A stretch of DNA of 64,000 nucleotides from Syntrophomonadaceae bacterium (GCA_007119965.1 SKOR01000039.1:3157-67156), one strand, 5' to 3'. Counted from the first letter of the stretch, positions 1,951 to 59,650 are shown. Translations and numbers: made by a program. Notes: generated by a model not told the origin, from the sequence alone.

Positions 1951-3216
1951 TTGGTGAAAGCAACACTAATTGTAAAAAACGCCGCCCAGCTTGTTACCTC
2001 CGTGGGGGCCTCTGAAACTCCCCTGGCCGGTGAACTGCAGGGCGAGCTTACAGTGTATGAAAATGGTTCCGTGGCCGTGGATGGTGATAAAATCGTGGCC
2101 GTGGGAACCACCGCGGAAGTATTGGAGCGCGTGGAAACCGGCGCAGAAACAAGGGTTGTTGACGCAAATGGCCAGGTTGTGCTGCCCGGCCTGATCGATC
2201 CACATACGCACGTGGTGTTCGGTGGCTCACGGGAACATGAATTGGCCCTTAAACTGGAAGGAGTCCCTTACCTCGAAATACTGGCTCGCGGCGGCGGCAT
2301 TTTAAGCAGTGTGGAAGCAACCCGCGCGGCCCCTAAAGAAGAGCTGGTGGCCTGCGGCATTAAGTACTGCCTGCAGATGCTGGCCCAGGGAACAACAACG
2401 GCTGAAGCGAAAAGCGGTTACGGATTATCGACTGAAGCTGAAATCAAAACCCTGCAGGCAGTCCGGCAGGTAGACAGCGCGCAGCCGGTCAATCTGGTCC
2501 CGACATTTCTCGGCGCCCATGCTGTGCCAAAGGAATACAAGGGCGACCCTGATCGCTATCTTGACCTGGTAATCGAAGAAATGCTGCCCCTTGTAGTAGA
2601 ACATAATCTGGCCCGCTACTGCGATGTTTTTTGCGAAGAAGGAGTTTTTACCGTTGAACAGTCACGGCGGGTTTTATTGGCCGCCCGTGATATGGGCTTA
2701 GAACTTAAAATACATGCCGATGAAATTGTGCCGCTGGGCGGCGCAGAGCTGGCTGCTGAACTGGGTGCAGTATCTGCCGATCACCTTCTGGTTATAGGTG
2801 ATGAAGGAATTAAAAGGATGGCCGAAGAAGGTGTAATTGCCGTTATTTTGCCGGGGACAACCTTTTACCTGCGCGAAGAGCATTACGCCCCGGCCAGAAA
2901 AATGATCGAAGCGGGGGTGCCTGTAGCCCTGGCTACTGATTTTAACCCGGGCAGTTCGCCGAACAATAACCTGCAGTTGATCATAAATATCGCCTGCCTT
3001 TACCTGCGCATGACCCCTGCCGAAGTGATCAACGCTATTACGATCAATGCCGCTCATGCCGTAGGTCGTGGAGCTGAAATCGGCAGCCTGGAGGAAGGCA
3101 AAAAAGCGGACCTGGTTATATTCGACGCTCCCAATTATGATTACCTTGCTTACCGTTACGGGACAAACCTGGTTAACAGGGTGATAAAAAACGGCCGGTT
3201 AGTCGTGGAGGTGTAG
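1951..3216 (+). CDS. hutI: imidazolonepropionase
   Basis: Amidohydrolase metal-ligand motifs typical of HutI are present: DPHTHVVFGGSRE, KIHADE, ATDFNPGSSP. GAGGTG at 1943-1948 precedes TTG 1951 and GTG 1954. Context is the hut cluster. Confidence 0.93.
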   Translation: MVKATLIVKNAAQLVTSVGASETPLAGELQGELTVYENGSVAVDGDKIVAVGTTAEVLERVETGAETRVVDANGQVVLPGLIDPHTHVVFGGSREHELALKLEGVPYLEILARGGGILSSVEATRAAPKEELVACGIKYCLQMLAQGTTTAEAKSGYGLSTEAEIKTLQAVRQVDSAQPVNLVPTFLGAHAVPKEYKGDPDRYLDLVIEEMLPLVVEHNLARYCDVFCEEGVFTVEQSRRVLLAARDMGLELKIHADEIVPLGGAELAAELGAVSADHLLVIGDEGIKRMAEEGVIAVILPGTTFYLREEHYAPARKMIEAGVPVALATDFNPGSSPNNNLQLIINIACLYLRMTPAEVINAITINAAHAVGRGAEIGSLEEGKKADLVIFDAPNYDYLAYRYGTNLVNRVIKNGRLVVEV

Positions 3217-3223
3217 CAGTTTA

Positions 3224-4120
3224 ATGACAAAAATAGTCCAGTGTGTCCCGAACTTCAGTGAAGGGCGCAGGTTAGGGGTAATAGAAGAAATCGTCGGGGC
3301 CATTAAAAGCGCGGCGGGAGTGGCCCTTCTTGATTACTCGCACGATGAAAGCCACAACCGCTCCGTGGTTACTTTTATCGGAGAGCCGCAGGCGGTTATG
3401 GAAGCCGCGTTTCGCGGGGCAAAAAAAGCTTCCGAAAAGATTGACCTGTCGACCCACAGCGGGGGACATCCCCGCATGGGAGCAGTCGATGTGATTCCAT
3501 TTATTCCTGTCAAAGGGGTGTCCATGGAAGAGTGCATAGAGATGGCCAGGCAGTTGGGTCGGAGGTTGGCTGATGAACTCAACCTGCCGATTTATCTTTA
3601 TGAAGAAGCAGCCTCTAAACCCGATAGAAAAAACCTTTCCGATGTGCGCCGGGGCCAATACGAAGGCTTGATTGATTCGATCACAGATCCAGGGCGCGAA
3701 CCTGATTTCGGGCCGGCAAAGGTCCATCCCCGGGCGGGAGTGACCGCTGTCGGAGCCCGGCCCCCGTTGATTGCTTACAATATCAACCTCGATACCGCCG
3801 ATGTCAGCGTTGCCAAAAATATTGCCCGGGCAATCAGGGGCAGCAGCGGTGGGTTTCCAACCGTTAAAGGCCTCGGAATAATGATCGAGGAGACAGGAAA
3901 AGCCCAGGTGACTTTTAACGTTTGCGATTATAAAAAAGTACCGCTGCACCGTATTTTTGAACTGGTTAAAAGGGAAGCGGCACGTTACGGGGTGACGGTG
4001 ACTGGCAGTGAAGTGATCGGCCTGACTCCTCTTGATGCCCTGGTCGATGCCGCAGTATTTTACCTGCAGATAGACGGTTTTGAGCGTAGCCAGGTCTTAG
4101 AAAACAGATTATTGGAGTGA
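3224..4120 (+). CDS. ftcD: glutamate formimidoyltransferase (transferase domain only, no cyclodeaminase domain)
   Basis: The N-terminus MTKIVQCVPNFSEGRR is characteristic of the formiminotransferase family. The 298-aa length fits the stand-alone transferase. It starts 8 nt after hutI. Confidence 0.88.
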   Translation: MTKIVQCVPNFSEGRRLGVIEEIVGAIKSAAGVALLDYSHDESHNRSVVTFIGEPQAVMEAAFRGAKKASEKIDLSTHSGGHPRMGAVDVIPFIPVKGVSMEECIEMARQLGRRLADELNLPIYLYEEAASKPDRKNLSDVRRGQYEGLIDSITDPGREPDFGPAKVHPRAGVTAVGARPPLIAYNINLDTADVSVAKNIARAIRGSSGGFPTVKGLGIMIEETGKAQVTFNVCDYKKVPLHRIFELVKREAARYGVTVTGSEVIGLTPLDALVDAAVFYLQIDGFERSQVLENRLLE

Positions 4121-11535: not shown

Positions 11536-11554
11536 ATCTGCGACAGTTAAATAA

Positions 11555-11715
11555 GAGCCAATCAGGTGTCAATAGACTGAATAGGGAAGCCGGTGAAAAT
11601 CCGGCGCGGTCCCGCCACTGTAAGTGGGAAGCATCTCCTTGAAGCCACTGGTTTTAAACTGCCGGGAAGGCAGGAGATGCAGTGAACACGAGCCAGGAGA
11701 CCTGCCTGATTGCGC
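11555..11715 (+). promoter_or_regulatory. cobalamin (B12) riboswitch aptamer
   Basis: The conserved core is GGGAAGCCGGTGAAAATCCGGCGCGGTCCCGCCACTGTAA, with the B12-box region GAAGCCACTG..GGGAAGG and ..AGCCAGGAGACCTGCC. P1 pairs CAATCAGG (11559-11566) with CCTGATTG (11705-11712). Confidence 0.92.
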
Positions 11716-11752
11716 GCTTAACCCCTTCGGGTGAAAGGGTAAAGCGGGGTAG

Positions 11753-11851: not shown

Positions 11852-12829
11852 ATGAAAGGTAAGTTGTTAATGTTGGTATTGCTGGTGGGAGTCAGCCTGT
11901 TGTTCCTGGCAGGCTGCGGAAGCGCAGATCATGCAACTGAAAATGATGAACCGGTAGAGGTTCTTGAACCGGATGATTCCCCGGAGCCTGTTGAAACCGA
12001 CGGGACCGTGGTTGTGACCGACCAAATGGGGCGTGAAGTTGTAATCGAGAGTGTTCCGCAGCGAATTATTTCCCTGTCCCCGAGCAATACAGAGATAGCT
12101 TTTGCCCTGGGTCTCGGCGATCGTATTGTCGGGGTAACCGAATTCTGCAATTACCCGCCTGAAGCTCTTGAAAAAGACGATGTCGGCGGCTTCAGCACTC
12201 CCAGTATTGAGCGGATTCTTGAACTTGAACCTGAACTGATCCTGGCTTCGACAATCCATGAAGAAGAAGTGCCCCGCCTGGAAGAGCTGGGCCTGTCGGT
12301 TTTGGTTATCGAGTCATCTAACCTGATTGATCTTTACACCAGTATCTCTCTTGTCGCTGAAGTAACCGGAATTACAGCCGACGGAGAAGCGCTGATTGCC
12401 TCAATGCAGGAGCGGATCGGGGCTGTGGAAGCGGTTGTCGCTGATCTGGATCCCGAAGACCGGGTCCGGGTTTACTACGAAGTCTATTCCGATCCGTTAA
12501 TGAGCGCGGGTAAGGGCGCATTCATTAACGAAATAATTTCACTGGCCGGGGGAGTCAATATTTTTGGCGATGTTGATGAAAATTATCCAACGATCAGCGC
12601 CGAAGTAGTCGCTGAAAAACAGCCTGACATAATATTGTTCCCCGATTACCACGGCACAGCTGATTTCGTTGTAGACGGCATGGCCGAACGCGCGGGTTGG
12701 GAAAGCCTCCCTGCCGTGCAGGAGAGCAGGGTTTTCGCCATTTCGGATGATGCTTTTGCCCGCCCGGGCCCCCGTGTGGTTGAAGCGGTAGAGGAAGCGG
12801 CCAGGATTTTTTACCCGGAAATGTTTTAA
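11852..12829 (+). CDS. corrinoid/iron-complex ABC transporter substrate-binding lipoprotein (BtuF-like)
   Basis: Lipobox LLFLAGC. Cluster-A (FecB/BtuF-type) binding-protein architecture. It is the first gene after the B12 riboswitch. Confidence 0.85.
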   Translation: MKGKLLMLVLLVGVSLLFLAGCGSADHATENDEPVEVLEPDDSPEPVETDGTVVVTDQMGREVVIESVPQRIISLSPSNTEIAFALGLGDRIVGVTEFCNYPPEALEKDDVGGFSTPSIERILELEPELILASTIHEEEVPRLEELGLSVLVIESSNLIDLYTSISLVAEVTGITADGEALIASMQERIGAVEAVVADLDPEDRVRVYYEVYSDPLMSAGKGAFINEIISLAGGVNIFGDVDENYPTISAEVVAEKQPDIILFPDYHGTADFVVDGMAERAGWESLPAVQESRVFAISDDAFARPGPRVVEAVEEAARIFYPEMF

Positions 12830-47141: not shown

Positions 47142-47951
47142 ATGGATAAACTGATTATTACGGCAGCGCCAACAGGCAATGTTCCCACCAGGAGCATAAA
47201 CCCTTTCCTGCCGGTTACCCCTGATGAAATTGCCGCCGATGTGAGCCTCTGCCGGCAGGCAGGGGCAGCTGTAGCCCACATTCACGCCCGTGATGAAAAA
47301 GGAAAGCCGACCACTGACCTGAATGTATTTAAGGCGATCATGGAAAAGGTAAGGGAGCAGTGCGATATTATTGTCCAGTTTTCGACAGGGGCCCGCGGAG
47401 GCAGCGGCGCAGCCGAACGGGGCGCATGTATCGCCCTTAAACCTGAAATGGCCAGCCTTTCTACCGGGTCATCAAATTTTGCCGCGTCGGTAAATTACAA
47501 CCCTCCGGGATTGATTAAAGAGCTGGCCGGCCGTATGGCTGAACATGGGGTTAAGCCGGAAATAGAAGTGTTCGATATATCCGCCCTGGAATATGCAGAG
47601 CACCTGGTCGAAAAAGGACTGCTTGAAAAGCCGCTGCATATAAACCTTGTATTGGGGGTGCCCGGTTCAATGCAGGGTAACCCGCGAAACCTGTTTTATA
47701 TGGTGGAAAGCCTGCCGGCAGGCTGCACCTGGTCCGTGGCCGCCATCGGCAAAAGCCATAAGCAGTTAAGCGCCCTGGCCCTTGTCCTGGGCGGCCATGT
47801 CCGCACCGGTATAGAAGATGTGCCGGAACTGGAGCCGGGAAACCCCTTGTCCAATGCCGCCCTGGTGGAAAGAATCGCAAGCCTGGCCGGCATTTACGGC
47901 CGGGAGATAGCTTCTCCTGAAGAGGCCAGGGTCATCCTTGGATTAAAATGA
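47142..47951 (+). CDS. BKACE-family enzyme (3-keto-5-aminohexanoate cleavage enzyme-like)
   Basis: ITAAPTG.....P.TP.EIA and HIHARD motifs are typical of the Kce/DUF849 family. Size is 269 aa. Confidence 0.82.
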   Translation: MDKLIITAAPTGNVPTRSINPFLPVTPDEIAADVSLCRQAGAAVAHIHARDEKGKPTTDLNVFKAIMEKVREQCDIIVQFSTGARGGSGAAERGACIALKPEMASLSTGSSNFAASVNYNPPGLIKELAGRMAEHGVKPEIEVFDISALEYAEHLVEKGLLEKPLHINLVLGVPGSMQGNPRNLFYMVESLPAGCTWSVAAIGKSHKQLSALALVLGGHVRTGIEDVPELEPGNPLSNAALVERIASLAGIYGREIASPEEARVILGLK

Positions 47952-47967: not shown

Positions 47968-47996
47968 TTGACAACCGGGGTCTCCTGGTTTAGAAT
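47968..47996 (+). promoter_or_regulatory. near-consensus sigma-A promoter of hutH-hutP
   Basis: TTGACA (47968-47973), an exact 17-nt spacer, then TAGAAT (47991-47996). Confidence 0.65.
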
Positions 47997-48001
47997 CTGG
48001 A

Positions 48002-48092
48002 TAGAGATTAGAAAAAATAAATAATGCAGTCCTGCTGCTCATAGTTGACAGACATGAGGGAGCACCGGGGTTTAATCCCGCGTGCTTTTTTT
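48002..48092 (+). promoter_or_regulatory. hut leader: NAG-N4 repeats (candidate HutP binding site) plus an intrinsic terminator
   Basis: TAG 48042, CAG 48049 and GAG 48056 are each separated by 4 nt. Two upstream TAGs lie at 48002 and 48009. The terminator pairs GCAC-CGGG (48062-48069) with CCCG-c-GTGC (48077-48085), a 4+4 bp stem with one bulge, followed by T7 (48086-48092). The hutP gene is present downstream. Confidence 0.55.
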
Positions 48093-48118
48093 ATGTTTTC
48101 TCAGGAGGTGCAGTAATA

Positions 48119-49669
48119 ATGAATTTAGCCGGGGAGGCCAAAAAAGTGACACAGCCGCTGGTTATTAACGGTGAAAAGATTAACGTTAAAGATATTGCCC
48201 GGGTAGCCAGGCAGAATGGGCCTGTTTCTATTTCACCCGGGGCGCTGCAGAGGGTTGAACGTTCAAGGTTAATGCTGGAAAAACTGGTCGATGAAAATGC
48301 CGTTGTATATGGTATTACTACCGGGTTTGGCCGTTTCAGCGATGTGAGCATTTCCAGGGAAGATGCCATAGAGTTGCAGAAGAACCTGATTTCCAGCCAT
48401 GCTGCAGCAGTCGGCGAGCCCCTGCCTGAAGAAGCCGTAAGGGCTGCTCTTTTGCTGAGGTTAAATGCCCTGGCCAGGGGCAACTCCGGGGTCCGCCCGC
48501 TATTGGTGGAGCATCTGGCTGAAGTCCTGAACAGGGGGGTTACACCGCTGATTCCTGAACAGGGTTCGCTCGGCGCCAGCGGTGATTTGGCGCCGCTTTC
48601 ACACCTGGCTCTTGTATTAACCGGTGAAGGGGAAGCCTTTTACCGGGGTGAGAGGATGACCGGGGCAGAAGCTTTGTCGGCGGCAGGGTTGGAACCCATT
48701 ATCCTGGTTGAGAAGGAAGGCCTGGCCCTGGTAAACGGCACCCAGATTATGACTGCAATCGGCTCGCTGGCCTATCATGACGCGGTTAATACTTTTAAGG
48801 CGGCCCTGATTACCGCGGCGCTGACTCTCGAAGCCCAGCTGGCAGTACCCGATGCCTTTGATCCCCTTATTGCTGAAGTAAGACCTTACAGCGGGCACAT
48901 CTATACCGCTGCCGCTATTTTGCGCCTTCTCGAAGGGAGCAGCCTGGTCGGCAGTGATCAGCGCAAGGTGCAGGATGCATACAGCCTGCGCTGCATACCC
49001 CAGGTCCACGGTGCAGCTTCCAATGCCCTGGATTATGTAAATAGCATCCTGGAAGTTGAGATTAACTCGGTCAACGATAACCCTATGCTCTTCCCCGAAG
49101 AAAACAGGGTTCTGTCGGGGGGTAACTTCCACGGCCAGCCTGTAGCCCAGGCGATGGATTTTCTGGCGATTGCCCTAGCTGAGCTGGGCAGTATTGCCGA
49201 GCGCCGCATTGAACGCCTTGTTAACCCCTCTTTAAGCGGTTTGCCTCCATTCCTGGTCAGGGAAGGCGGCCTGAACTCCGGGTTGATGATTGCCCAGTAT
49301 ACCGCTGCTTCATTGGTCAGCGAAAATAAGGTGCTCTGCCACCCGGCCAGTGTCGATTCAATCCCTTCGTCGGCGAACCAGGAAGACCATGTCAGCATGG
49401 GGACTACCGCAGCCCGCAAAGCCCGTAAAGTGGTTGATAATACTGCCATGGTAATCGGCATTGAACTGCTTTCCGCAGCACAGGCCGTTGATTTCAGGGG
49501 GGCGGAAAATCTTGGCCGCGGCACTTCGGCAGCCTACAGATTACTGCGCGAAGAAATTGATTTCCTGGAAAAAGACCGCATTCTCTACCCCCTGATTGAC
49601 AGGGCGGTTAAAATGGTTACCAGCGGCAGGCTGGTCGAAGCAGTGGAAAAGGAAGTCAGCCTTTCCTGA
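48119..49669 (+). CDS. hutH: histidine ammonia-lyase
   Basis: The MIO-forming motif GSLGASGDLAPLSH and the family motifs NGTQ and SVNDNP are present. Size is 516 aa. Confidence 0.95.
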   Translation: MNLAGEAKKVTQPLVINGEKINVKDIARVARQNGPVSISPGALQRVERSRLMLEKLVDENAVVYGITTGFGRFSDVSISREDAIELQKNLISSHAAAVGEPLPEEAVRAALLLRLNALARGNSGVRPLLVEHLAEVLNRGVTPLIPEQGSLGASGDLAPLSHLALVLTGEGEAFYRGERMTGAEALSAAGLEPIILVEKEGLALVNGTQIMTAIGSLAYHDAVNTFKAALITAALTLEAQLAVPDAFDPLIAEVRPYSGHIYTAAAILRLLEGSSLVGSDQRKVQDAYSLRCIPQVHGAASNALDYVNSILEVEINSVNDNPMLFPEENRVLSGGNFHGQPVAQAMDFLAIALAELGSIAERRIERLVNPSLSGLPPFLVREGGLNSGLMIAQYTAASLVSENKVLCHPASVDSIPSSANQEDHVSMGTTAARKARKVVDNTAMVIGIELLSAAQAVDFRGAENLGRGTSAAYRLLREEIDFLEKDRILYPLIDRAVKMVTSGRLVEAVEKEVSLS

Positions 49670-49765
49670 AACTACGCGGCTGACCTGTCACTGGGTGATG
49701 CTAAACAGCCTGCTTAATGGTAAAATAGATCAGTTGGAAAGTCCGGAAAGAGGCGGGGAAACGTA

Positions 49766-50203
49766 ATGGAGCAAATCGGAAGAACGGCGATCATGTATAC
49801 GCTTGCCGATGGTGAAATGGAAGAACAGATTAAAACAATAGCTGTGGAAAACGGTTTTAAAATGATCAAAGGCAAAGTTGGATCGATGAGTACCGAGAAA
49901 ATATTTGCCGCCGTGGAAACAGCGGCCCAGAGGGAAGGGTTGATCGGTAAAGATCATTATCGCGATACCCACGCTCTTTATCACGCCATACTGGAAGCAT
50001 TTACGGGCATCTGCAGGGGGCAGCTCGGTTTAGGAGATATGCTGCGTACCGTGGGTTTAATCTTTACCGTTGTCAGGGGCCCGCGGGCCGGCGATCAGCT
50101 TGATGACGGCGAGTGGCTCGCCGTAGTGCTCTACGGAACTATCGGCGCTCCCATTAAGGGTTACGAACATGAAACAATCGGCCTCGGCCTGAACCATTTA
50201 TAA
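49766..50203 (+). CDS. hutP: hut operon positive regulator HutP (histidine-activated RNA-binding antiterminator)
   Basis: Strong match to Bacillus subtilis HutP as I recall it: GKVGSM, HALYHA, LRTVGLIFTVVRG, LYGTIGAPIKGYEHETIGLGLNHL. Confidence 0.9.
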   Translation: MEQIGRTAIMYTLADGEMEEQIKTIAVENGFKMIKGKVGSMSTEKIFAAVETAAQREGLIGKDHYRDTHALYHAILEAFTGICRGQLGLGDMLRTVGLIFTVVRGPRAGDQLDDGEWLAVVLYGTIGAPIKGYEHETIGLGLNHL

Positions 50204-50291
50204 CCAGTTGCTTCGGCACTTACAACTTTCGGAAACTCACCGGTTAGCTGAGCAGATACAATAATTAAAAAGCGCACCGGTTACCAGGCAA

Positions 50292-51761
50292 TTGCCTGTT
50301 AAGCTTATTATTCTATCGGAGGTGTTCAAAATAACCGCTTATCGTTCAAATTACAGTCAGCAGCTATCTCCGCAGTTGAAATGGTTCAGCACCAGCCAGC
50401 TGGAAGAAATCCACAGCGCCACTGTCGATGTCCTTGAAAGGGCAGGCGTGCGTGTTGATCACGATGAATCATTAAAACTGCTTAAAGATGCAGGTTGCAT
50501 AGTAAAAGATCGTGTTGTAAAAATACCGGGGTGGCTAATCGAAGAGGCAATCAGGGTAGCGCCTTCTAAGATTAACATTTATAACCGTGAAGGCCGCCCG
50601 GCCATGAATCTGGAAGCCAACAACACTTTTTACGGGGCAGGCTCTGACCTCCCCTTTCATCTGGATTTTGAAACCGGTCAGAGAAGGAATGCTGTTAAAC
50701 AGGATGTTATTAATGCGGCAAGGTTGATCGATAAATTGCCAAACTATGACTTTTCCATGAGTTACGCTATTCCCACTGATGTGCCCGCAGCGAAAGGGGA
50801 CCTGCATCAATTTGCAGCCCAGGTTCAAAACTGCTCCAAACCGATTATTTTCACCTCATTTGACGAGCATAATCTGAAAATAATTATCGATATGGCTGCG
50901 GCGGCAGCAGGCTCCCACGAAGAACTGCGGGACCGCCCTTTTATCATTCTCTACGATGAGCCGATCTCACCGCTTATTCATACCCGCGACGGCCTGGCCA
51001 AGATGTTTGCCTGCATCGAGCATGGCATACCGGTTGTTTATACCCCCGGGGTTGTAGCGGGAGGGACCTGCCCTGTAACCAAGGCCGGCACCATTGTGCA
51101 GATGAACGCGGAAAGCCTCTCGGGGCTGGTTATTGCCCAGCTGAAAAAGAAAGGGGCCCCGATCATTATCGGCGGAGGAGCAACTCCGATGGAGATGAGC
51201 ACTACGGCAACGCTGTACGGTTCACCGGACGCAGCGATGAACTACTGCGCGATGACTGAACTGGCCAGGTTTTACCGCCTGCCTAACTTTACCGAGGCCG
51301 GTTGCTCCAATGCGCCGCTGCCAGATGCCCAGGCCGGCATGGAAGCGTCAACCGGGTTGCTGCTTAACCAGCTCTGCGGGGCGAACCTGGTCCACGATGT
51401 CGGCTACCTGGATGGGGGCAAAACAGGGTCACTGCCCTTCCTGGTTATGTGCGATGATTTCATCAGCGCTGCCAGATATATCGGCGCGGGCACCGTTGTA
51501 AACAGTGATACGATCGGAGCTGATGCCATTATCGATGTTGGGCCTTCGGGGCATTTCCTCGGGGAGGAACATACGATGAAGCATTTTCGAAGCGAAATCT
51601 GGTCGCCCACGGTTTTTAACCGCACCATGTACCAGAACTGGGAGCAGAACGGCCGGAAGGATACTTTTGAACTGGCCCGAGAAAAGGCGGAAGCGCTTCT
51701 CGGGGAAGAGGTCAATGCCCCCGATCAAGAGGTTGTTGAAAAAATCAACAGCATGCTTTAA
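50292..51761 (+). CDS. MttB-superfamily (non-pyrrolysine) methyltransferase, paralogue 1
   Basis: It aligns along its length with the two other paralogues here and with the trimethylamine methyltransferase family pattern (QLEEIHSATVDVLERAGV..., YDEPISPL, GGATPMEMSTTA, GYLDGG). There is no in-frame TAG. The start is uncertain: TTG 50292 has no RBS, GGAGG 50318-50322 abuts GTG 50322, and ATA 50331 lies 8 nt after it. Confidence 0.85.
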   Translation: MPVKLIILSEVFKITAYRSNYSQQLSPQLKWFSTSQLEEIHSATVDVLERAGVRVDHDESLKLLKDAGCIVKDRVVKIPGWLIEEAIRVAPSKINIYNREGRPAMNLEANNTFYGAGSDLPFHLDFETGQRRNAVKQDVINAARLIDKLPNYDFSMSYAIPTDVPAAKGDLHQFAAQVQNCSKPIIFTSFDEHNLKIIIDMAAAAAGSHEELRDRPFIILYDEPISPLIHTRDGLAKMFACIEHGIPVVYTPGVVAGGTCPVTKAGTIVQMNAESLSGLVIAQLKKKGAPIIIGGGATPMEMSTTATLYGSPDAAMNYCAMTELARFYRLPNFTEAGCSNAPLPDAQAGMEASTGLLLNQLCGANLVHDVGYLDGGKTGSLPFLVMCDDFISAARYIGAGTVVNSDTIGADAIIDVGPSGHFLGEEHTMKHFRSEIWSPTVFNRTMYQNWEQNGRKDTFELAREKAEALLGEEVNAPDQEVVEKINSML

Positions 51762-52099
51762 GCTGAGGCAAGATGAATTCAGGGGGACGGTTCCCTATTG
51801 CCGATTAAGTTGAACCTGGAACGCACAGCATGCTCATGGGCAGGGGTGACTTAAGCGGTCCGGAATTTGCCGGGGCAGTTAAAAGCTATGGGCGGCATCC
51901 TCTTAATTAATAAATCTAATGGCTATGGTTATCACTTACTCGCCTGAAAGGTTATAATAGGAAAAGCGCGAATGTATATTAACGCTTCAATAACATAAAA
52001 GGACAGGGAGTTGATGCCCGCAGAGTAAAAGCCTGCAGTTAAATTCTTGCCCCTTTTGGGGCAGAAAGCACAAAGAGATAATTAGAGGAGGCAATAACA

Positions 52100-53668
52100 T
52101 TGTTTAAAAAAACATTATTTTTATTGGCAGTAATCCTGATGGCCGGTATGCTGGTTGTATCCTGCGCCCCGGATGACCCTGTTGTAGATGAAGAACCCGA
52201 AGAAGCGATTTCTGAAAAGCACGGCGGGGTACTGCGCACTGCGACATATGCTCCCGGAAACACAGACCCCGCGTTTTTCGGAACTGTTCCTGATGAACAT
52301 ATCGGCCGGCAGTGGGGAGAGTTTCTGGTTTTTATCGATGAAGGCAATGAGCCTGACCCGGACCGCAGCCTTGCCGAAAGCTGGGAAGTAGATGAGGAGG
52401 CAAGGGTCTGGACTTTCAATCTCCGTGAGGGAATTCTTTTCCATGACGGCAAAGAGCTGACCTCGCGTGACGTACAGTTCACCTTTGATCGCCTCCGTGA
52501 TCCCGATGTTGGAGCAGCTACCGTAACAACATATGCTAACATCAACGAGATCAGCACACCCGATGATTATACCGTGGTTTTTGAACTCGAAGATTCCAAT
52601 GTCGACTTTTTATTCGATATCTTTGATTACCATGCAATAATTGTTGACGCCGACAACGACAATTTCGCAACGAACTTAAACGGCACCGGCCCTTTTATGG
52701 TTGAAAGCTATTCACCTGAAGACCGGATTGTTTTAACCCGTAATCCGGACTACTGGATGAACGATGCAGATGGCAATCAGCTTCCTTACCTTGACGGGTT
52801 GGAAATTATATTCCTGAGCGAATCATCGGCACAGATTGAAGCGCTGCGCGGCGGCCAGATCGATTACCTGATCTACCTGCCAACCGAGTTTATCCCGCTC
52901 CTTGAAGAAGACCCGGGTATTGAAGTATACCAGACACCGTCGAATACTTCCTATGTCCTGCGTATGCGCTCCGATGAAGGCCCGGCCAGTGATGTCCGTG
53001 TCCGTCAGGCTCTTAAAGCCGGCACAGACCGCTCTGCCATCCTTGATGGAGCAATCGATGGCTACGGGACAGTCGCCCGCGACACTCCGATCGGCCCTGC
53101 ATATGGGGATTTCTACCTTGACGTGCCTGAGCTGGAACGTGATGTAGAGAAGGCAGTTGAGCTCCTGGAGGAAGCCGGTTATGGCGATGGGCTTGATATC
53201 ACCATAACCACCCAGGAATCATCACCAGTTCCCGCTATCGCGACGATCTGGAAAGAGCAGATGGCTGAAATCGGCGTTAACGTTGACATTCAACTCGTCC
53301 CTTCAGATGTTTACTACTCACCGGAAGGTTGGCTGGAAGTGCCTTTCGGCATTACCGACTGGGGGGCAAGGTCATACCCGCAGCCTTACCTGGATCTTGC
53401 TTATGTCTGTGATGGACAGTGGAATGAGAGCCACTGGTGTGATCCTGAACTGGACGAGCTGGCTGCAGCTGCTGCCAGGGAAATGGATCATGATGAACGA
53501 GTCCGCCTCTACCATGAAATCCAGGAGATTTTTATTGAGCGCGGCCCGATTATTATCCCCTTCTTTATCAATAACCTTTGGGGAGCCAGCTCCGACCTGA
53601 AAGGCCTTAACCCGCCAATTACCCTTGGCACAGCAATGGATCTGCGCGTTGTTTATTTCGAAAGATAA
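52100..53668 (+). CDS. ABC transporter substrate-binding lipoprotein, family 5
   Basis: Lipobox MLVVSC and the family-5 SBP pattern (GTGPFMVESYSPEDRIVLTRNPDYW). TTG 52100 lies 8 nt after GAGGAGG. Confidence 0.9.
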   Translation: MFKKTLFLLAVILMAGMLVVSCAPDDPVVDEEPEEAISEKHGGVLRTATYAPGNTDPAFFGTVPDEHIGRQWGEFLVFIDEGNEPDPDRSLAESWEVDEEARVWTFNLREGILFHDGKELTSRDVQFTFDRLRDPDVGAATVTTYANINEISTPDDYTVVFELEDSNVDFLFDIFDYHAIIVDADNDNFATNLNGTGPFMVESYSPEDRIVLTRNPDYWMNDADGNQLPYLDGLEIIFLSESSAQIEALRGGQIDYLIYLPTEFIPLLEEDPGIEVYQTPSNTSYVLRMRSDEGPASDVRVRQALKAGTDRSAILDGAIDGYGTVARDTPIGPAYGDFYLDVPELERDVEKAVELLEEAGYGDGLDITITTQESSPVPAIATIWKEQMAEIGVNVDIQLVPSDVYYSPEGWLEVPFGITDWGARSYPQPYLDLAYVCDGQWNESHWCDPELDELAAAAAREMDHDERVRLYHEIQEIFIERGPIIIPFFINNLWGASSDLKGLNPPITLGTAMDLRVVYFER

Positions 53669-53817
53669 TAAACAGGCTTGTTATGATCCGGAAGTGAGTG
53701 AAGTTAGCTAGGTCTCCCCTGCCTCTCCGGGGCAGGGTGTCCGCAGCGGTATCCCGGCGAGCGCTCAACGCCCGCCGGGACGCTGCTGATAAAATATCTC
53801 CTCGAGGGAGGTAGCAA

Positions 53818-54708
53818 ATGGCAGCTTCCGAACAAAAAATTCAGAAAAAGAAGATAACCGTTTCACCCCTAAAAAAATTTTTCAGGCGCCTTCGACGCTA
53901 CCCGACCACCTTTATCGGAATTTCGATTGTCATTATATTTTTACTGATCGCTGCTTTCGGCCCGCTGATTGCCCCGTACCATTATTCGCAGCAGGATCTG
54001 CTCCAGCGCCTGCAGCCGCCTTCTGATGAACATATTTTTGGCACAGACCAATTTGGACGTGACATCTTCAGCCGGATCCTGGTCGGCAGCCGGGATGTTT
54101 TGCTGATAGCCGGTTCCGGAACCGCTTTGGCTGTTTTCTCCGGCCTGCTCCTGGGGCTGTTTTCCGGTTACATAGGGGGCCTTTTTGACGAAATTGTCAT
54201 GCGCATCATGGATGTAATCCTGTCGATCCCCCCGCTCCTCCTGGCTATGGTGATTTTATTTGCCCTCGGCCCCTCGAGGCTCAACGTAGTGATAGTCGTC
54301 GGATTTCTCTATATCCCGATGGTGGCCAGGGTTGTCAGGAGCGTTGTTTTGGAGTTAAAGACAAGGCAGTTTGTTGAAGCGGCCCGGCTGCGCGGCGAAA
54401 CCAGGCTCTACGTGCTCTATAAAGAGATTCTGCCTAATGTCCTGCCTCACCTGGCGGTTGAAGCCTCAATGCGTTTTTCCTATTCCATTTTTTTAGTTGC
54501 TTCTTTGGGCTTCCTGGGCCTCGGAGTCCAGCCGCCCAGTCCCGACTGGGGCCTGATGGTTGGCGAAGCAAGAACCTGGTTTTACCAGGCCCAGTGGGTG
54601 CTCTTTTTCCCTGCCGGTGCCATAGCGACCCTGGTTGTCGGCGTTGGCTTTATGAGCGACGGATTGCGGAGGATGCTGCTGCCGGGAGGTGTCACCGATG
54701 ATGGATAA
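53818..54708 (+). CDS. ABC transporter permease (DppC-like)
   Basis: IFGTDQFGRDIFSRILVG and the EAA-loop FVEAARLRGE. ATG follows GGGAGG. Confidence 0.9.
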   Translation: MAASEQKIQKKKITVSPLKKFFRRLRRYPTTFIGISIVIIFLLIAAFGPLIAPYHYSQQDLLQRLQPPSDEHIFGTDQFGRDIFSRILVGSRDVLLIAGSGTALAVFSGLLLGLFSGYIGGLFDEIVMRIMDVILSIPPLLLAMVILFALGPSRLNVVIVVGFLYIPMVARVVRSVVLELKTRQFVEAARLRGETRLYVLYKEILPNVLPHLAVEASMRFSYSIFLVASLGFLGLGVQPPSPDWGLMVGEARTWFYQAQWVLFFPAGAIATLVVGVGFMSDGLRRMLLPGGVTDDG

Positions 54709-56776
54709 CGGAAAAGTGTTGGATGTAGATAACCTGACTGTAACCTATATGACCGAAAAAGGACCTTTAGATGTTGTGCGCAGCGTATCCCTGCAAATTG
54801 CACCCGGTGAGATCTACGGCCTGGTCGGCGAATCAGGCTCCGGCAAAACCACTTTAGCAAGGGCAGTAGTGCGCTACCTGCCCTCAAATGGGAAGATCAC
54901 CGGCGGCACGGTCAGCCTGTCGGGTACAGACTTGAGCACCCGGTCCCAAAAAGAGATCCGCGGCATCTGGGGTTCGCGGATGACTATGGTCCACCAGGAC
55001 CCGAATGCCGCGATTAACCCGTCGATGATGATCGGCGAGCAGATTGCTGAAATGACCCGCACCCACATGGGGTTGTCCAGAAAGGAATCGCGTGAGCGGG
55101 CTCTCGAGATGCTGAACAAGGTGCGTATGCCCGATCCTGAATCAGTAGCCAGGCGCTATGCCCACCAGCTCTCAGGCGGTATGCTACAGAGGGTGCTGAT
55201 TGCCACGGCAATGGCCACCAACCCTGAATTTATAATTATGGACGAGCCGACTACCGCTTTAGATGTCACCACCGAAGCGGTGATTTTAGACTTAATTCAT
55301 GAACTGATGGACGAATACAATACTGCCATCCTGTTTATCACCCACAACCTTGGTGTGATAGCGAGAATATGCGACCGGATCGGCGTTTTATATGCCGGCG
55401 AAATTATGGAAGAAGGGCCGATTCATGATGTTTTCAAAGCAAGGCTGCATCCTTACACCCGCGGCCTGTTAGGCTGCGTGCCCAGGGTGGATGCCAACAA
55501 AAAGGAGATTAGCTTAAGCGCCATCCCCGGCTATATCCCCCGTCCCGACGAACTGCCCGAAGGTTGTATTTTCGGCCCCCGCTGCGAGCTGGTCGAAGCG
55601 GCCTGCCGCGAAGCGCGTCCCCCGGTAGTCTCGGTCGGCCCGGATCACCTGAGCGCCTGCCGTCGCCATGAAATACTCAGGGACAGGTCCGAAAAGGCGG
55701 ACGAGACACGCGAGGAAACAATCGGAGATGAGCTCGGCCATATTGTCCTGGAAGCGCGAAACATTAAGAAGTATTTTCCTTTTTCTGGGGGCTTAGGTTC
55801 GATCTGGCAGCGCAGGCGCAGCGAGCTGAAAGCGGTAGATGATATTTCCGTACGGATGCGCAGCTCTTTTACAATGGGAATTGTTGGAGAATCGGGCTGC
55901 GGCAAGACTACCCTGGCGCGCTGCATAGCAGGCCTTGAAGAAGCTACCGCGGGCGAGATAGAACTGGAAGGCCAATTGCTGGATTACTCGGTGAATAAGC
56001 GGCCTCGCGCTATCCTGCAGAAAATCCAGATGGTCTTTCAGAACCCGGATGCGTCTTTAAACCCGCAGCACCCGGCCGGGGACAGTGTGGCCAGGCCTCT
56101 GATTCTGCTGCGCAATATGGACAGAAAGCAGGTCCGGGAAAAAGTAGCCGAGCTGTTTAAGGCAGTCAGCCTGCCAGCTGACTACATCGACCGCCTGCCG
56201 CATGAACTGAGCGGCGGTGAAAAACAGCGTGTGGCGATTGCCCGGGCTTTTGCTGCCGATCCGGCCCTGATGATCTGTGACGAACCGATTTCTTCGCTGG
56301 ACGTTTCGGTCCAGGCTTCCCTGATGAATCTGCTGGCCGAACTTCAGGACAAATCGAAGACCTCTTATCTCTTTATATCGCATGATCTTGCAGCAGTGCG
56401 CCACATTTCGGACTGGATAGCTGTGGTTTACCTGGGGCGTCTCTGGGAAATAGGTTCGGCGGAAGATGTTTTTATTCCACCCTATCATCCTTATACAGAG
56501 GCGCTGCTATCAGCAATACCCATTCCAGATCCCGACATCAGGCAGGATCGCATCCGGCTCAAAGGCAGCGTGCCTAGCTCGCTGAATATTCCCCCGGGCT
56601 GCCGTTTCCATACCCGCTGCCCCCGCAAAGTCGGCGAAATCTGCGAGACAACGGAGCCGCCCTGGCAGGATATGGCCGACGGCCACCGAATCTGCTGCCA
56701 TATCCCCCTGGAAGAGCTAAAAGAGCTGCAGGGTGACGGGCTGCTGAAAACAGCAGGCCTAAGGGGGAATAACTGA
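54698..56776 (+). CDS. fused double ATP-binding protein of a peptide-type ABC transporter (DppD-DppF fusion)
   Basis: Two complete cassettes are present: GESGSGKTT/LSGGMLQR/IIMDEPT and GESGCGKTT/LSGGEKQR/MICDEPISSLD. ATG 54698 lies 8 nt after GGAGG. Confidence 0.9.
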   Translation: MMDNGKVLDVDNLTVTYMTEKGPLDVVRSVSLQIAPGEIYGLVGESGSGKTTLARAVVRYLPSNGKITGGTVSLSGTDLSTRSQKEIRGIWGSRMTMVHQDPNAAINPSMMIGEQIAEMTRTHMGLSRKESRERALEMLNKVRMPDPESVARRYAHQLSGGMLQRVLIATAMATNPEFIIMDEPTTALDVTTEAVILDLIHELMDEYNTAILFITHNLGVIARICDRIGVLYAGEIMEEGPIHDVFKARLHPYTRGLLGCVPRVDANKKEISLSAIPGYIPRPDELPEGCIFGPRCELVEAACREARPPVVSVGPDHLSACRRHEILRDRSEKADETREETIGDELGHIVLEARNIKKYFPFSGGLGSIWQRRRSELKAVDDISVRMRSSFTMGIVGESGCGKTTLARCIAGLEEATAGEIELEGQLLDYSVNKRPRAILQKIQMVFQNPDASLNPQHPAGDSVARPLILLRNMDRKQVREKVAELFKAVSLPADYIDRLPHELSGGEKQRVAIARAFAADPALMICDEPISSLDVSVQASLMNLLAELQDKSKTSYLFISHDLAAVRHISDWIAVVYLGRLWEIGSAEDVFIPPYHPYTEALLSAIPIPDPDIRQDRIRLKGSVPSSLNIPPGCRFHTRCPRKVGEICETTEPPWQDMADGHRICCHIPLEELKELQGDGLLKTAGLRGNN

Positions 56777-57723
56777 TGGGCCCCTACCTGATAAGAAGAT
56801 TTGGTTTTATCCTGCTGACCCTGTTTCTGGCCTCGTTGATTATCTTTTCGATCACCCAGTTTCTGCCCGGTGATATTGCCCAGGTTATTTTGGGGCAGTT
56901 CGCCACCGAAGCGGCCATAGCGAACCTGCGTGAAGAGCTCGGTTTGAATGATCCCCTGCACATGCAGTATCTAAATTGGGCCGGAAACTTTATTCGCGGC
57001 GACTGGGGCGATTCCCTGGTCAGCCGAACGCCGGTCCGTCCGATCGTCACCCAGCGTCTCGTTAACTCGGCCATGCTGGCGGGCCTGGCCCTATTGATTT
57101 ATGTGCCCCTGGGGATAATTTTAGGGGTGATTGCCGCCCTGAAACGGGATAAACTGCCCGATCAGCTGATCACCGGAGTTTCAATGGCTTTCGTCGGCCT
57201 GCCCGAATTTGTAAGCGGGCTGCTGCTGATTAGCTTTTTAGCCATCGGGTTGGGCTGGTTCCCGGCCAACTCATCGATCGACCCCGATTCGACTTTTCTC
57301 GAATCGCTGCCCTACCTGATCCTGCCCGCGATTACGGTTAGTTTGACCGGCCTGGGCTATATTGCCCGGATGACCCGCTCGGGAACCATCGATGTTCTGC
57401 GCGCCGATTATGTTCGTGCGGCAGAATTAAAAGGGCTCTCCGGCCGGTCGGTCCTGATCCGGCACGTTCTGCGCAATTCGCTTTTACCTACAGTGACCGT
57501 TGTGGCCATGGGGATCGGCTGGCTGCTTGGCGGCTTGATCGTTACCGAGGCGGTTTACGGTTATCCCGGCCTCGGGAGGCTGCTGGTTTACGGTATCCAG
57601 CGCCAGGACCTGCCCATTATCCAGGCCGGATCGATGATCGTGGTCGCCGTTTACAGCCTGTCGAACCTGGCAGCAGATATCCTTTACGGGTTGCTAAACC
57701 CGAGGATTCGAGTCGGAAAGTGA
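56776..57723 (+). CDS. ABC transporter permease (DppB-like)
   Basis: The N-terminus MGPYLIRRFGFILLTL and the EAA-loop YVRAAELKGLS. The start overlaps the upstream stop. Confidence 0.9.
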   Translation: MGPYLIRRFGFILLTLFLASLIIFSITQFLPGDIAQVILGQFATEAAIANLREELGLNDPLHMQYLNWAGNFIRGDWGDSLVSRTPVRPIVTQRLVNSAMLAGLALLIYVPLGIILGVIAALKRDKLPDQLITGVSMAFVGLPEFVSGLLLISFLAIGLGWFPANSSIDPDSTFLESLPYLILPAITVSLTGLGYIARMTRSGTIDVLRADYVRAAELKGLSGRSVLIRHVLRNSLLPTVTVVAMGIGWLLGGLIVTEAVYGYPGLGRLLVYGIQRQDLPIIQAGSMIVVAVYSLSNLAADILYGLLNPRIRVGK

Positions 57724-58198: not shown

Positions 58199-59650
58199 AT
58201 GTCGTTTTCTGTACATGCCCTGCCCCGTATTCAGCTTTTCAGCAGTGAACAGTGTGAGGCGCTTCACCTTGCCACACTGGATATTTTGAGAAGGACCGGG
58301 ACACGGGTCTACCACCCCGAAGCCCTGCACCTCCTGCAGGAAGCAGGGGCAACTGTAAGTGATGATACGCTGGTCCGTTATCCGCCGTCTCTTGTAGAGT
58401 GGGCCCTGAAGCAGGCTCCTTCTACTGTTGCGCTATGCAAGAGGGGCAGCAGAAGGGCGGCGCTCAAACTGGAAGCGATGAATGTTGCTTTCGGGACAGG
58501 TTCGGATTGCTGCAACTACCTCGATCCCCGTACGGGTGAGCAGCGTCTCTTCACAACAGACGACATTATTGACTGCATCCACCTGGTTGATGCCTGTGAC
58601 AATCTTGATTTTTGCATGTCCATGGGGATCCCTTCAGACTTATACAGGAATGATCCCTACCGGTACCAGTTTTCGCTGCTCATTCAGAATACCTCGAAGC
58701 CGATTGTCTTTGTGGCCGGCAGCCGGGAAGACTGTGAAGCAATCGTTGCCATGGCTGCTGCTGCAGCCGGCGGGTTTGCTAACTTGAGATTAAACCCCTC
58801 GATCCTATGCTACAGCCAGGTAACCACCCCCCTGGTCCATAATCGGGATTCAACCGCCAAGCTGCTTTACCTGGCTGAAATTGGCATACCCATAGTCCAC
58901 CAGCCTTCTCCGATGATCGGGGGCACTGCACCGATGAGCATGGCCGGGGCCCTGGCGATCGGCAATGCTGAAATGCTTTCCGGGATGGTTATCCACCAGC
59001 TGAAGCAGCAGGGAGCACCGTTCCTCTACGGCGGTGGGCAGCACCACATGGACATGCAGACAACTATCAGCGTTTACGGCGCTCCGGAATTTGATCTGCT
59101 AAGGGTGGCGGTTGCAGAAATGGCCCGCTATTACAACCTGCCCGGCTGGGGCTATGCCGGCTGCACCGACAGCTGCGTTTTCGATGAGCAGGCGGCAGCC
59201 GATGCCACAGCATCGATCATGACCGCCTTACTCAGCGGTCAAAACCTGGTCCATGATATTGGCTACATGGAAGCCGGCCTTACTATTTCACCTGAAATGA
59301 TTCTCTTCTCCGATGAAATAATCGGCAGGATGAGATCTTTCTCCCGTGGAATCTTTCTCGACGCAGAATCATTTGCTTTAGACCTGATTGACGAGGTAGG
59401 TCCGGGCGGCACCTTCCTGACCACTGAGCATACTTTCCAACATTTTCGCGATTTCTGGCAGCCCGCTTTCTTTAACCGCCACCGCAGGGGCGAGTGGGTT
59501 AGTTCGGGCAGCCGGCGCATGAATGACCGGATCAGGGAAAAAACAATCGCTATTATGGAATCCCATCAACCGGAAGCGCCGCCTGATTATCTGCGCGAAG
59601 AGGTTGCTTATATCATGAGCCAATCGGAAAGTTTTAAAAGAGGAGCTTAA
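58199..59650 (+). CDS. MttB-superfamily (non-pyrrolysine) methyltransferase, paralogue 2
   Basis: SEQCEALHLATLDILRRTG, SQVTTPL, GGGQHHMDMQTT and GYMEAG are present, with no in-frame TAG. ATG 58199 follows ACGGAGG at good spacing. Confidence 0.88.
   Translation: MSFSVHALPRIQLFSSEQCEALHLATLDILRRTGTRVYHPEALHLLQEAGATVSDDTLVRYPPSLVEWALKQAPSTVALCKRGSRRAALKLEAMNVAFGTGSDCCNYLDPRTGEQRLFTTDDIIDCIHLVDACDNLDFCMSMGIPSDLYRNDPYRYQFSLLIQNTSKPIVFVAGSREDCEAIVAMAAAAAGGFANLRLNPSILCYSQVTTPLVHNRDSTAKLLYLAEIGIPIVHQPSPMIGGTAPMSMAGALAIGNAEMLSGMVIHQLKQQGAPFLYGGGQHHMDMQTTISVYGAPEFDLLRVAVAEMARYYNLPGWGYAGCTDSCVFDEQAAADATASIMTALLSGQNLVHDIGYMEAGLTISPEMILFSDEIIGRMRSFSRGIFLDAESFALDLIDEVGPGGTFLTTEHTFQHFRDFWQPAFFNRHRRGEWVSSGSRRMNDRIREKTIAIMESHQPEAPPDYLREEVAYIMSQSESFKRGA

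Follow-up and report, generated by a model that had tools for sequence, protein, structure and literature searches.

In the 64,000-nucleotide (nt) stretch of Syntrophomonadaceae bacterium DNA analysed here (GCA_007119965.1 SKOR01000039.1:3157-67156; hereafter the window), which comes from the 2.3-Mb metagenome-assembled genome (MAG) of an uncultured soda-lake bacterium, a promoter and a HutP-type antitermination leader precede three genes: hutH, encoding histidine ammonia-lyase (HAL), hutP, encoding a histidine-activated RNA-binding antiterminator, and mttB1, encoding a non-pyrrolysine methyltransferase of the MttB superfamily. The leader and the gene order are conserved among related loci, the MttB1 clade carries a signature of its own in the active site, and its members are repeatedly linked to histidine genes. 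From this we infer that hutH, hutP and mttB1 are co-transcribed in this genome, that HutP acts on the leader, and that MttB1 acts on an N-methylated derivative of histidine; taken as a whole, we regard this reading as evenly balanced between right and wrong, and its parts carry strengths of their own. The promoter, the leader, the genes of this locus and the other hut genes of the window all lie on the plus strand.

The HutP-type leader, HutH and HutP

The promoter at 47968-47996 is of the sigma-70 type (TTGACA-17-TAGAAT), agrees with the consensus in 11 of 12 positions and ranks first in the 8 kb that were scanned (46-54 kb), which bears out the first-pass annotation of this DNA, where it had been called strong. 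In most related loci TTGACA is found at the equivalent place upstream of hutH. The order promoter, leader terminator, hutH, hutP is also as that annotation had given it. Within the leader (48024-48097), three XAG triplets separated by 4-nt spacers, namely UAG (48042-48044), CAG (48049-48051) and GAG (48056-48058), read UAG UUGA CAG ACAU GAG, and the GAG triplet opens the hairpin of the leader terminator at 48056-48092 (GAGGGAGCACCGGGG-UUUAA-UCCCGCGUGCU, then seven U residues), whose core stem is formed by 48061-48070 and 48076-48086 and whose U-tract occupies 48086-48092. The fold of the leader has a z-score of -2.8.

One genome per species with MttB1 was scanned, giving 35 loci, in 34 of which MttB1 is 73-89% identical. 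The regions upstream of the related hutH genes hold nearly base-for-base the same element, GCAGUCCUGCUGCUCAUAG-N4-UAG-N4-GAG-GGAGCAC, followed by the terminator. A covariance model (R1), built from 19 copies of the leader, matches once per locus in 23 related loci, with scores of 70-94 bits, and scores the leader of the window at 83.9 bits; when it is run on the 2.3-Mb genome, the only significant match is the leader before hutH. The terminator stem shows covariation, for example an A-U pair replaced by G-C in 4 sequences, and the array UAG-N4-(U/C)AG-N4-GAG, overlapping the 5' foot of the terminator, is conserved in the 23 loci. Each locus has a single conserved HutP leader, and the covariance model found no further copy before mttB1, the gene for the solute-binding lipoprotein (SBP) downstream of it, mttB2 or hutU, either in the genome or in the loci. 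A search with Rfam gave no match in the hutH-mttB1 region, its sole match in the window being a cobalamin riboswitch (RF00174, 123 bits) at 11547-11723, which precedes genes beginning at 11852.

The product of hutP (49766-50203) belongs to the HutP equivalog NF002838 (PF09021), scoring 190.6 bits against a cut-off of 155, and aligns from end to end with the structures of HutP from B. subtilis and relatives (1wmq and others; E = 2e-42). The segments conserved with 1wmq are YR.(S/T)HALYHA..EA, LRTVGL, V.RG and GAPIKG.EHET, of which the SHALYH and EHET stretches are identical to the B. subtilis structures; the individual ligand residues for L-histidine and Mg2+ presumably lie within these segments. 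A second PF09021 protein (C37:2924-4366, L001), located upstream of a lipoprotein-like open reading frame (ORF) of 333 amino acids (aa), was considered as a canonical HutP and rejected, since it has no HALYH segment, no hut neighbours and no upstream XAG array. HutH (48119-49669) scores 696 bits against TIGR01225, well over the cut-off of 539, and its translation holds GSLGASGDLAPLSH with the MIO triad Ala-Ser-Gly (GASG). The MIO-forming Ala-Ser-Gly triad is absent from ergothionase-type lyases, and its presence, together with the TIGR01225 score, rules out that HutH is an ergothionase.

The system resembles the hutPHUIGM operon of B. subtilis in having a HutP orthologue with a full-length match to solved structures, and in that an intrinsic terminator before hutH carries, at its 5' foot, XAG triplets spaced by 4 nt, with histidine as the expected signal. 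It differs in several aspects. The order is inverted to leader-hutH-hutP, which places hutP behind its own terminator and would make it autoregulated. The hutU, hutI and ftcD genes are located 44 kb away. The operon is reduced to hutH and extended by a methyltransferase gene; to our knowledge, no described hut operon carries a methyltransferase of the MttB family. Finally, there is one clear XAG array, whereas HutP of B. subtilis binds XAG triplets flanking the terminator stem and needs two arrays (PMC2425495). No conserved second array was found among the related leaders, and the 3' arm of the terminator contains no AG.

The RNA data for the locus come from one metatranscriptome of the same sediment (X12), in the form of assembled contigs only. 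One contig (47846-48051) runs from inside the upstream BKACE gene across the hutH promoter and ends just before the leader terminator, so that transcription may continue into the attenuator from the MFS, QueG-like and BKACE genes that lie upstream.

The hutP-mttB1 junction

The first-pass annotation had suggested a comparative check on the adjacency of hutP and an mttB gene. Of the 35 loci, 22 have hutH, hutP and mttB1 in this order, and one further locus ends upstream of hutP. The spacer between hutP and mttB1 ranges from 30 to 320 nt among relatives and is not conserved in sequence. In 8 species it measures 30-51 nt, Shine-Dalgarno sequence included, and is thus too short to accommodate a terminator or a promoter, and none of the species has a U-tract after the best hairpin of its spacer. 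In the window, the MttB ORF as first drawn spans 50292-51761 without an in-frame stop, and in the gap that this start would leave (50204-50291) a consensus scan detected neither a terminator-like nor a promoter-like site, while the fold is unremarkable (z = -0.93). The only local hairpin of the spacer is a perfect palindrome of 14 bp, CAGGCAATTGCCTG, at 50285-50298, which is followed by TTAAGCTT and not by a U-run, so the earlier remark that the gap holds no GC stem plus T-run stands. Two copies of CACCGGTTA and the palindrome CAGGCAATTGCCTG lie together at 50238-50298; they are not conserved in related species, where the spacers vary in length and sequence and often contain some stable hairpin without a U-tract. 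These elements could be an operator, or a hairpin affecting mRNA stability or processing.

The gap itself is most likely longer than the 88 nt originally reported. An extended Shine-Dalgarno sequence, GGAGGTG, is present at 50318-50324, and an ATA codon follows 6 nt on, at 50331. All 33 in-class orthologues have GGAGGTG followed after 5-7 nt (usually 6) by ATA (25), ATT (4) or ATC (4), and in none of the 33 does ATG, GTG or TTG take that position; orthologues from outside the class carry ATG or GTG at the corresponding place. The TTG at 50292 was rejected as a start, as it has no ribosome-binding site, is located inside the palindrome and opens a part that is not conserved as protein. The GTG within GGAGGTG was rejected as well, being out of frame in three relatives (L011, L019 and L027) and followed by an in-frame stop in six others (L022, L025, L026, L028, L029 and L036), so that it fails in at least nine species. 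Judged from these alignments, the conserved AUA at 50331 is the most likely start of mttB1 (50331-51761), which would set the hutP-mttB1 spacer at 50204-50330, that is, 127 nt. The conservation of a near-cognate start suggests that the translation of mttB1 is deliberately low or regulated.

In the metatranscriptome, hutH, hutP and mttB1 of this genome are represented by patchy pieces of low depth. For an abundant relative whose MttB1 is 86% identical and whose hutP-mttB1 gap is 30 nt (L004), one contig of 5,541 nt from the same RNA run contains the 3' part of hutH, hutP, mttB1, the SBP5 gene, oppC and the start of oppDF. The RNA-run depth of this relative differs five-fold across segments (17.5, 85.9, 41.8, 52.3 and 31.6) while its DNA depth is nearly flat (~230-370), which argues for real RNA, although some carried-over DNA may contribute. 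The claim that mttB1 is co-transcribed with hutH and hutP under the control of HutP is thus well supported by comparison, that is, by the gene order, the short gaps, the leader, a second type of HutP operon described below and the contig of the relative; for the window genome itself we consider co-transcription quite probable.

Histidine links and enzyme class of MttB1

The first-pass annotation had linked the methyltransferase to histidine catabolism, and other loci support this link independently. In two related species, L023 (1534-9449) and L025 (1-7873), a HutP leader is followed by genes for an aminotransferase, an ADP-forming acyl-CoA synthetase (ACD) and a HutP paralogue (hutP'), and then by iorA, iorB and an mttB1 orthologue; R1 scores the leader of L023 at 70.5 bits, and that of L025 is cut off by the end of the locus. 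In a third related species, L030 (1199-9452), a weaker leader match (32.9 bits) precedes a UbiD gene, which comes first behind the leader, two poorly assigned genes, hutP', iorA, iorB and an mttB1 orthologue, and a gene for a UbiX-like flavoprotein is found upstream. L025 and L030 contain a second XAG element between hutP' and iorA (UAG-N4-CAG-N4-GAG or CAG-N4-UAG-N4-AAG), with a terminator and seven U residues. The operon of aminotransferase, ACD and iorAB looks like an ATP-yielding transaminase/oxidoreductase route for histidine.

When 400 genomes of the phylum were sampled, 10 others, which belong to five families, proved to carry more distant orthologues at 55-61% identity, and these, together with Desulfosporosinus meridiei and Dehalobacterium formicoaceticum, make up the 12 out-of-class loci that were examined. 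The MttB1 orthologue adjoins an MttB2-type gene in 11 of them, Dehalobacterium being the exception, and in other families a member of the MttB2 subclade constantly accompanies the MttB1 orthologue. Seven of the 12 have hut genes (hutH, hutU, hutI, ftcD) within 10 kb, some orthologues lying within a complete hut operon or next to one. In one family, three genomes share the order mttB2-hutH-mttB1-fer4-hutI-ftcD-fchA (cyclodeaminase)-hutU, and in Zhaonella formicivorans genes for an OpuA-type ABC transporter, fer4, AFOR, a sigma-54 activator, two mttB genes, hutH, hutU, hutI, ftcD and a cyclodeaminase gene form the neighbourhood. The transporter next to the out-of-class orthologues is of the OpuA (betaine) type, and a corrinoid protein gene is often adjacent.

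In the window genome, the hutH of this operon is the sole HAL gene, and hutU (2-1897, its 5' end lying beyond the window edge), hutI (1951-3216) and ftcD (3224-4120), each above the cut-off of its NCBIfam equivalog, are in the window. A gene for formimino-tetrahydrofolate (THF) cyclodeaminase (FTCD_C) adjoins a paralogue of the MttB3 type (Cys clade) at C18:10799-12941. Because the second type of HutP operon, the hut-linked distant orthologues and these links within the genome itself are three independent observations, we consider that gene context makes the tie of MttB1 to histidine catabolism well supported.

As to the enzyme, MttB1 is a member of the superfamily by its match to PF06253 (315.9 bits, E = 4e-94, profile positions 25-477 of 500), and it matches the structures 7xcl (the best, E = 7e-58), 2qne, 9yce and 4yyc, the phmmer E-values for 2QNE and 9YCE being 1e-54 to 1e-55. 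It is not a pyrrolysine (Pyl)-type MttB: it reaches 405 bits against TIGR02369, below the cut-off of 525, and has no in-frame UAG. A Cys residue aligns with the pyrrolysine of 7xcl, and the pyrrolysine-adduct mechanism for trimethylamine therefore cannot apply. Paralogues were aligned with MtgB (9YCE) and Pyl-MttB (7XCL), and the signature was read at the MtgB positions. MtgB binds glycine betaine through Y97, R312, H348 and F356, and the carboxylate-binding Arg (R312) is reported to be conserved in all characterised non-Pyl members, among them MtcB, MtpB, MthB and MtyB (PMC13080624). In 48 sequences of the MttB1 clade the residues at Y97, R312, the Pyl position, H348 and F356 are invariably S, F, C, H and G, so that only the equivalent of H348 is kept. 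The replacement of R312 by Phe and of the aromatic pair by Ser and Gly argues that MttB1 is not a betaine methyltransferase of the MtgB type; as judged from the alignment, its pocket should be larger and less cationic than that of MtgB. MttB1, MttB2 and MttB3 together form a clade with 100/100 tree support that has Ser/Pro, Phe/Trp, Cys, His and Gly at these positions, and which is separate from the MtgB clade and, with weak support, nearer to the Pyl clade. The genome encodes about 20 MttB paralogues, of which one (C33:4769) has the full MtgB signature and four carry an in-frame TAG at the pyrrolysine position (these paralogues being on contigs C102, C73, C67, C44 and C33); the latter imply a pyrrolysine system in the MAG, and the substrates of both types appear to be covered already.

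In terms of known systems, MttB1 resembles MtgB of the glycine betaine:corrinoid:THF methyltransferase system MtgB/MtgC/MtgA of Desulfitobacterium hafniense (2QNE, 9YCE) in belonging to PF06253, lacking pyrrolysine, having the H348 equivalent and being expected to methylate a corrinoid protein. It is unlike MtgB in the three substituted residues, in having Cys for Leu at the Pyl position, in its separate clade and in its gene partners, which are hut genes and hutP rather than adjacent corrinoid protein and MT2 genes. With Pyl-MttB of Methanosarcina barkeri (7XCL) it shares an aromatic residue at the R312 position and Gly at the F356 position, but it has a Cys codon instead of an in-frame UAG. 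The enzymes of Eubacterium limosum for carnitine (MtcB), proline betaine (MtpB), gamma-butyrobetaine (MtyB) and choline (MthB) are likewise non-Pyl members of the superfamily, which demethylate quaternary amines in an anaerobic Firmicute, but they keep an Arg of the R312 type where the MttB1 clade has Phe, a distinction drawn only from their description in PMC13080624.

The surroundings of the operon include the BKACE gene (47142-47951) upstream of the hutH promoter and, downstream, a peptide-type ABC importer (SBP5 lipoprotein, OppC, fused OppD-F and OppB; 52100-57723), assigned by Pfam and synteny, which follows mttB1 in most related loci. The gap between mttB1 and the SBP5 gene is 338 nt and contains a promoter-like site at 51929-51958 (10/12); the importer is probably a separate or additional transcription unit. 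Beyond it come mttB2 (58199-59650), a second Cys-type paralogue identified by Pfam, tree and neighbourhoods, then a molybdenum enzyme gene of the XDH family and a third MttB gene. The hutU, hutI and ftcD genes, which encode the remaining histidine pathway, lie upstream of hutH and are not preceded by the HutP leader. The window hutU is of a long form, with 631 aa even as truncated and 673-687 aa in relatives, and is 74-78% identical across distant families that have the MttB1/MttB2 cluster (L040, L043, L057-L063), while it is only 30% identical to the ordinary urocanase of 566 aa in L023. It scores 446 bits where the hutU equivalog cut-off is 375, and falls far under the cut-offs for thiourocanate hydratase.

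Proposed mechanism, alternatives and implications

We propose that hutH-hutP-mttB1 would be one transcription unit starting at the promoter at 47968. When there is no histidine, transcription would halt at the leader terminator (48056-48092). When histidine is present, HutP with histidine and Mg2+ would bind the UAG-N4-CAG-N4-GAG array and, as the last XAG triplet is the foot of the terminator stem, would prevent the terminator from forming; RNA polymerase would then read through hutH, hutP (a positive autoregulation) and mttB1, which would be translated from the conserved, weak AUA behind its very strong Shine-Dalgarno sequence. MttB1 would be a corrinoid-dependent methyltransferase of a distinct non-pyrrolysine clade, with Cys at the Pyl position and without the Arg/aromatic cage of MtgB, and would work with corrinoid and methyl-corrinoid:THF proteins encoded elsewhere in the genome, where homologues of corrinoid proteins are present on C80, C21 and C73 and homologues of MT2 on C33 and C12. 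Its likeliest job would be the removal of a methyl group from an N-methylated histidine derivative, such as hercynine, an N-alpha-methylhistidine or a ring-methylated histidine. Either at once or after MttB2 and MttB3 have acted further on it, the product would enter the pathway of HutH, HutU, HutI and FtcD, and the methyl group would pass to THF.

Several observations weigh against this reading, and they are given here with the alternatives that they favour. Two are general: the leader has a single clear XAG array where B. subtilis HutP needs two, and no corrinoid protein, MT2 or activase gene was found in the window. Two others concern the link to histidine and the substrate. The Dehalobacterium orthologue has no hut neighbours, being accompanied by a corrinoid protein and MT2 only, and the missing R312-type Arg is unexpected for an alpha-betaine such as hercynine and weakens the case for hercynine bound in the pose of glycine betaine. 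Both would suit an enzyme that demethylates a methylamine or quaternary amine unrelated to histidine, whose clustering with hut genes would reflect the shared one-carbon pool on THF (methyl-THF from MttB, formimino-THF from FtcD) or the scavenging of nitrogen or osmolytes. The OpuA-type betaine transporters beside the out-of-class orthologues and the FTCD_C gene beside the MttB3-type paralogue on C18 fit this explanation too. However, the transaminase/IOR operons under HutP (L023, L025 and L030) yield no one-carbon unit on THF and still end in mttB1, and the position of hutH between mttB2 and mttB1 in one family looks like a single pathway and not like loose co-regulation; we therefore rate a substrate unrelated to histidine as rather unlikely, though it deserves serious consideration.

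Other points concern the junction. In the metatranscriptome no contig covers 50166-50381, that is, the hutP-mttB1 junction of this genome; the depth on mttB1 (5.5-7.2) is somewhat above that on hutH and hutP (2.3-5.6); the RNA run may contain carried-over DNA; and the 127-nt spacer is longer than in many relatives and holds the 14-bp palindrome, so that an internal promoter, operator or partial terminator may be present. It could thus be argued that mttB1 is expressed mainly from its own signal in the spacer, or together with the downstream ABC importer, and is not under the control of HutP and histidine here. The palindrome and the two CACCGGTTA copies as possible operators, the RNA-run depth, which is slightly greater over mttB1 and the SBP gene than over hutH and hutP, and the spacers of 200-320 nt in some relatives would agree with such a signal. 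Nevertheless, the spacer contains no promoter-like site (at least 9/12) and no terminator-like site, the gene order is conserved while the spacer sequence is not, eight relatives have gaps of 30-51 nt that offer no room for signals, and the contig of L004 crosses the junction. On balance we think it unlikely that mttB1 escapes the control of HutP in this way.

In at least three relatives (L027-L029), mttB1 has no hutHP neighbour but comes after a BKACE or an MFS gene in a lysine 5,6-aminomutase island: it lies 18 nt behind BKACE in L027, and the MFS gene precedes it in L028 and L029. In L029 (174-9455) the genes are PucR, an unassigned ORF of 350 aa, KamD, KamE, EamA, MFS, mttB1 and Opp. This arrangement is a condensed form of the island at 25543-51761 of the window, which has in addition M20 peptidases, a second Opp system, the QueG-like gene, BKACE and the hutH-hutP cassette. 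As the window locus lies among the same island genes, an older cluster may have received the hutH-hutP cassette by insertion. Taken to its conclusion, the cassette, with its promoter and leader, would have entered an older island (MFS, QueG-like, BKACE, mttB1 and Opp, near lysine 5,6-aminomutase) in this lineage specifically, MttB1 would act on a methylated compound of the lysine or beta-amino-acid type, and its place behind hutP would be incidental. We consider this quite improbable, given that the out-of-class orthologues have hut genes and no Kam or BKACE neighbours, that mttB1 is found in two different types of HutP-controlled operon, and that the order hutHP-mttB1 is kept across 22 species. 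That MttB1 is yet another methyltransferase for glycine betaine, proline betaine or carnitine is very improbable: it belongs to PF06253 and lacks a pyrrolysine codon, as do MtgB, MtpB and MtcB, but three of the four substrate-binding residues of MtgB differ, its clade is separate and the genome has a full-signature MtgB paralogue.

Within the proposal of a HutP-gated hutH-hutP-mttB1 unit, we place the likelihood that the substrate is a methylated histidine derivative just short of even. The OpuA transporters beside the out-of-class orthologues pull towards a quaternary amine such as hercynine, while the pocket with Phe in place of R312 would be in keeping with other methylated histidines or with another way of binding. 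The suggestion of hercynine or N-methylhistidines made from the sequence alone thus remains an inference; for hercynine, it gains from these transporters and loses from, or is at least complicated by, the lack of a carboxylate-binding Arg in the clade. The related idea of a dipeptide source agrees with the peptide importer and the M20 peptidases in this class only; outside it the transporter is of the OpuA type.

The MttB superfamily is the known route for the anaerobic demethylation of trimethylamine and a few betaines, and most of its members have no assigned substrate. Cyanobacteria, fungi, actinobacteria and animals produce hercynine, methylhistidines and the precursors of ergothioneine. 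Full-text searches of the literature gave no paper in which MttB is connected to hercynine, methylhistidine or ergothioneine, none that connects HutP to methyltransferases, and no relevant paper joining hercynine or methylhistidine with corrinoid methyltransferases was found in the searchable full texts. With its invariant and unusual signature and its presence in at least three histidine-linked operon architectures in several families, the MttB1 clade is a testable candidate for a new substrate class, and orthologues are carried by the cultured Zhaonella formicivorans and Desulfosporosinus meridiei. As a broader and more tentative proposal, which we hold to be possible rather than likely, methylated histidines (hercynine and/or N-methylhistidines) may have their first corrinoid-dependent methyltransferases in the Cys-type MttB1 and MttB2 clades, which would permit the anaerobic demethylation of these compounds to histidine for the Hut or the transaminase/IOR pathway; in the Dethiobacteria this would be a HutP regulon induced by its end product, histidine, with the translation of MttB1 throttled by the AUA start. 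The gene context suggests that some methylated compound of histidine is used by an anaerobic route not described so far, and would widen the reach of HutP beyond the classical Bacillus hut operon to a larger regulon.

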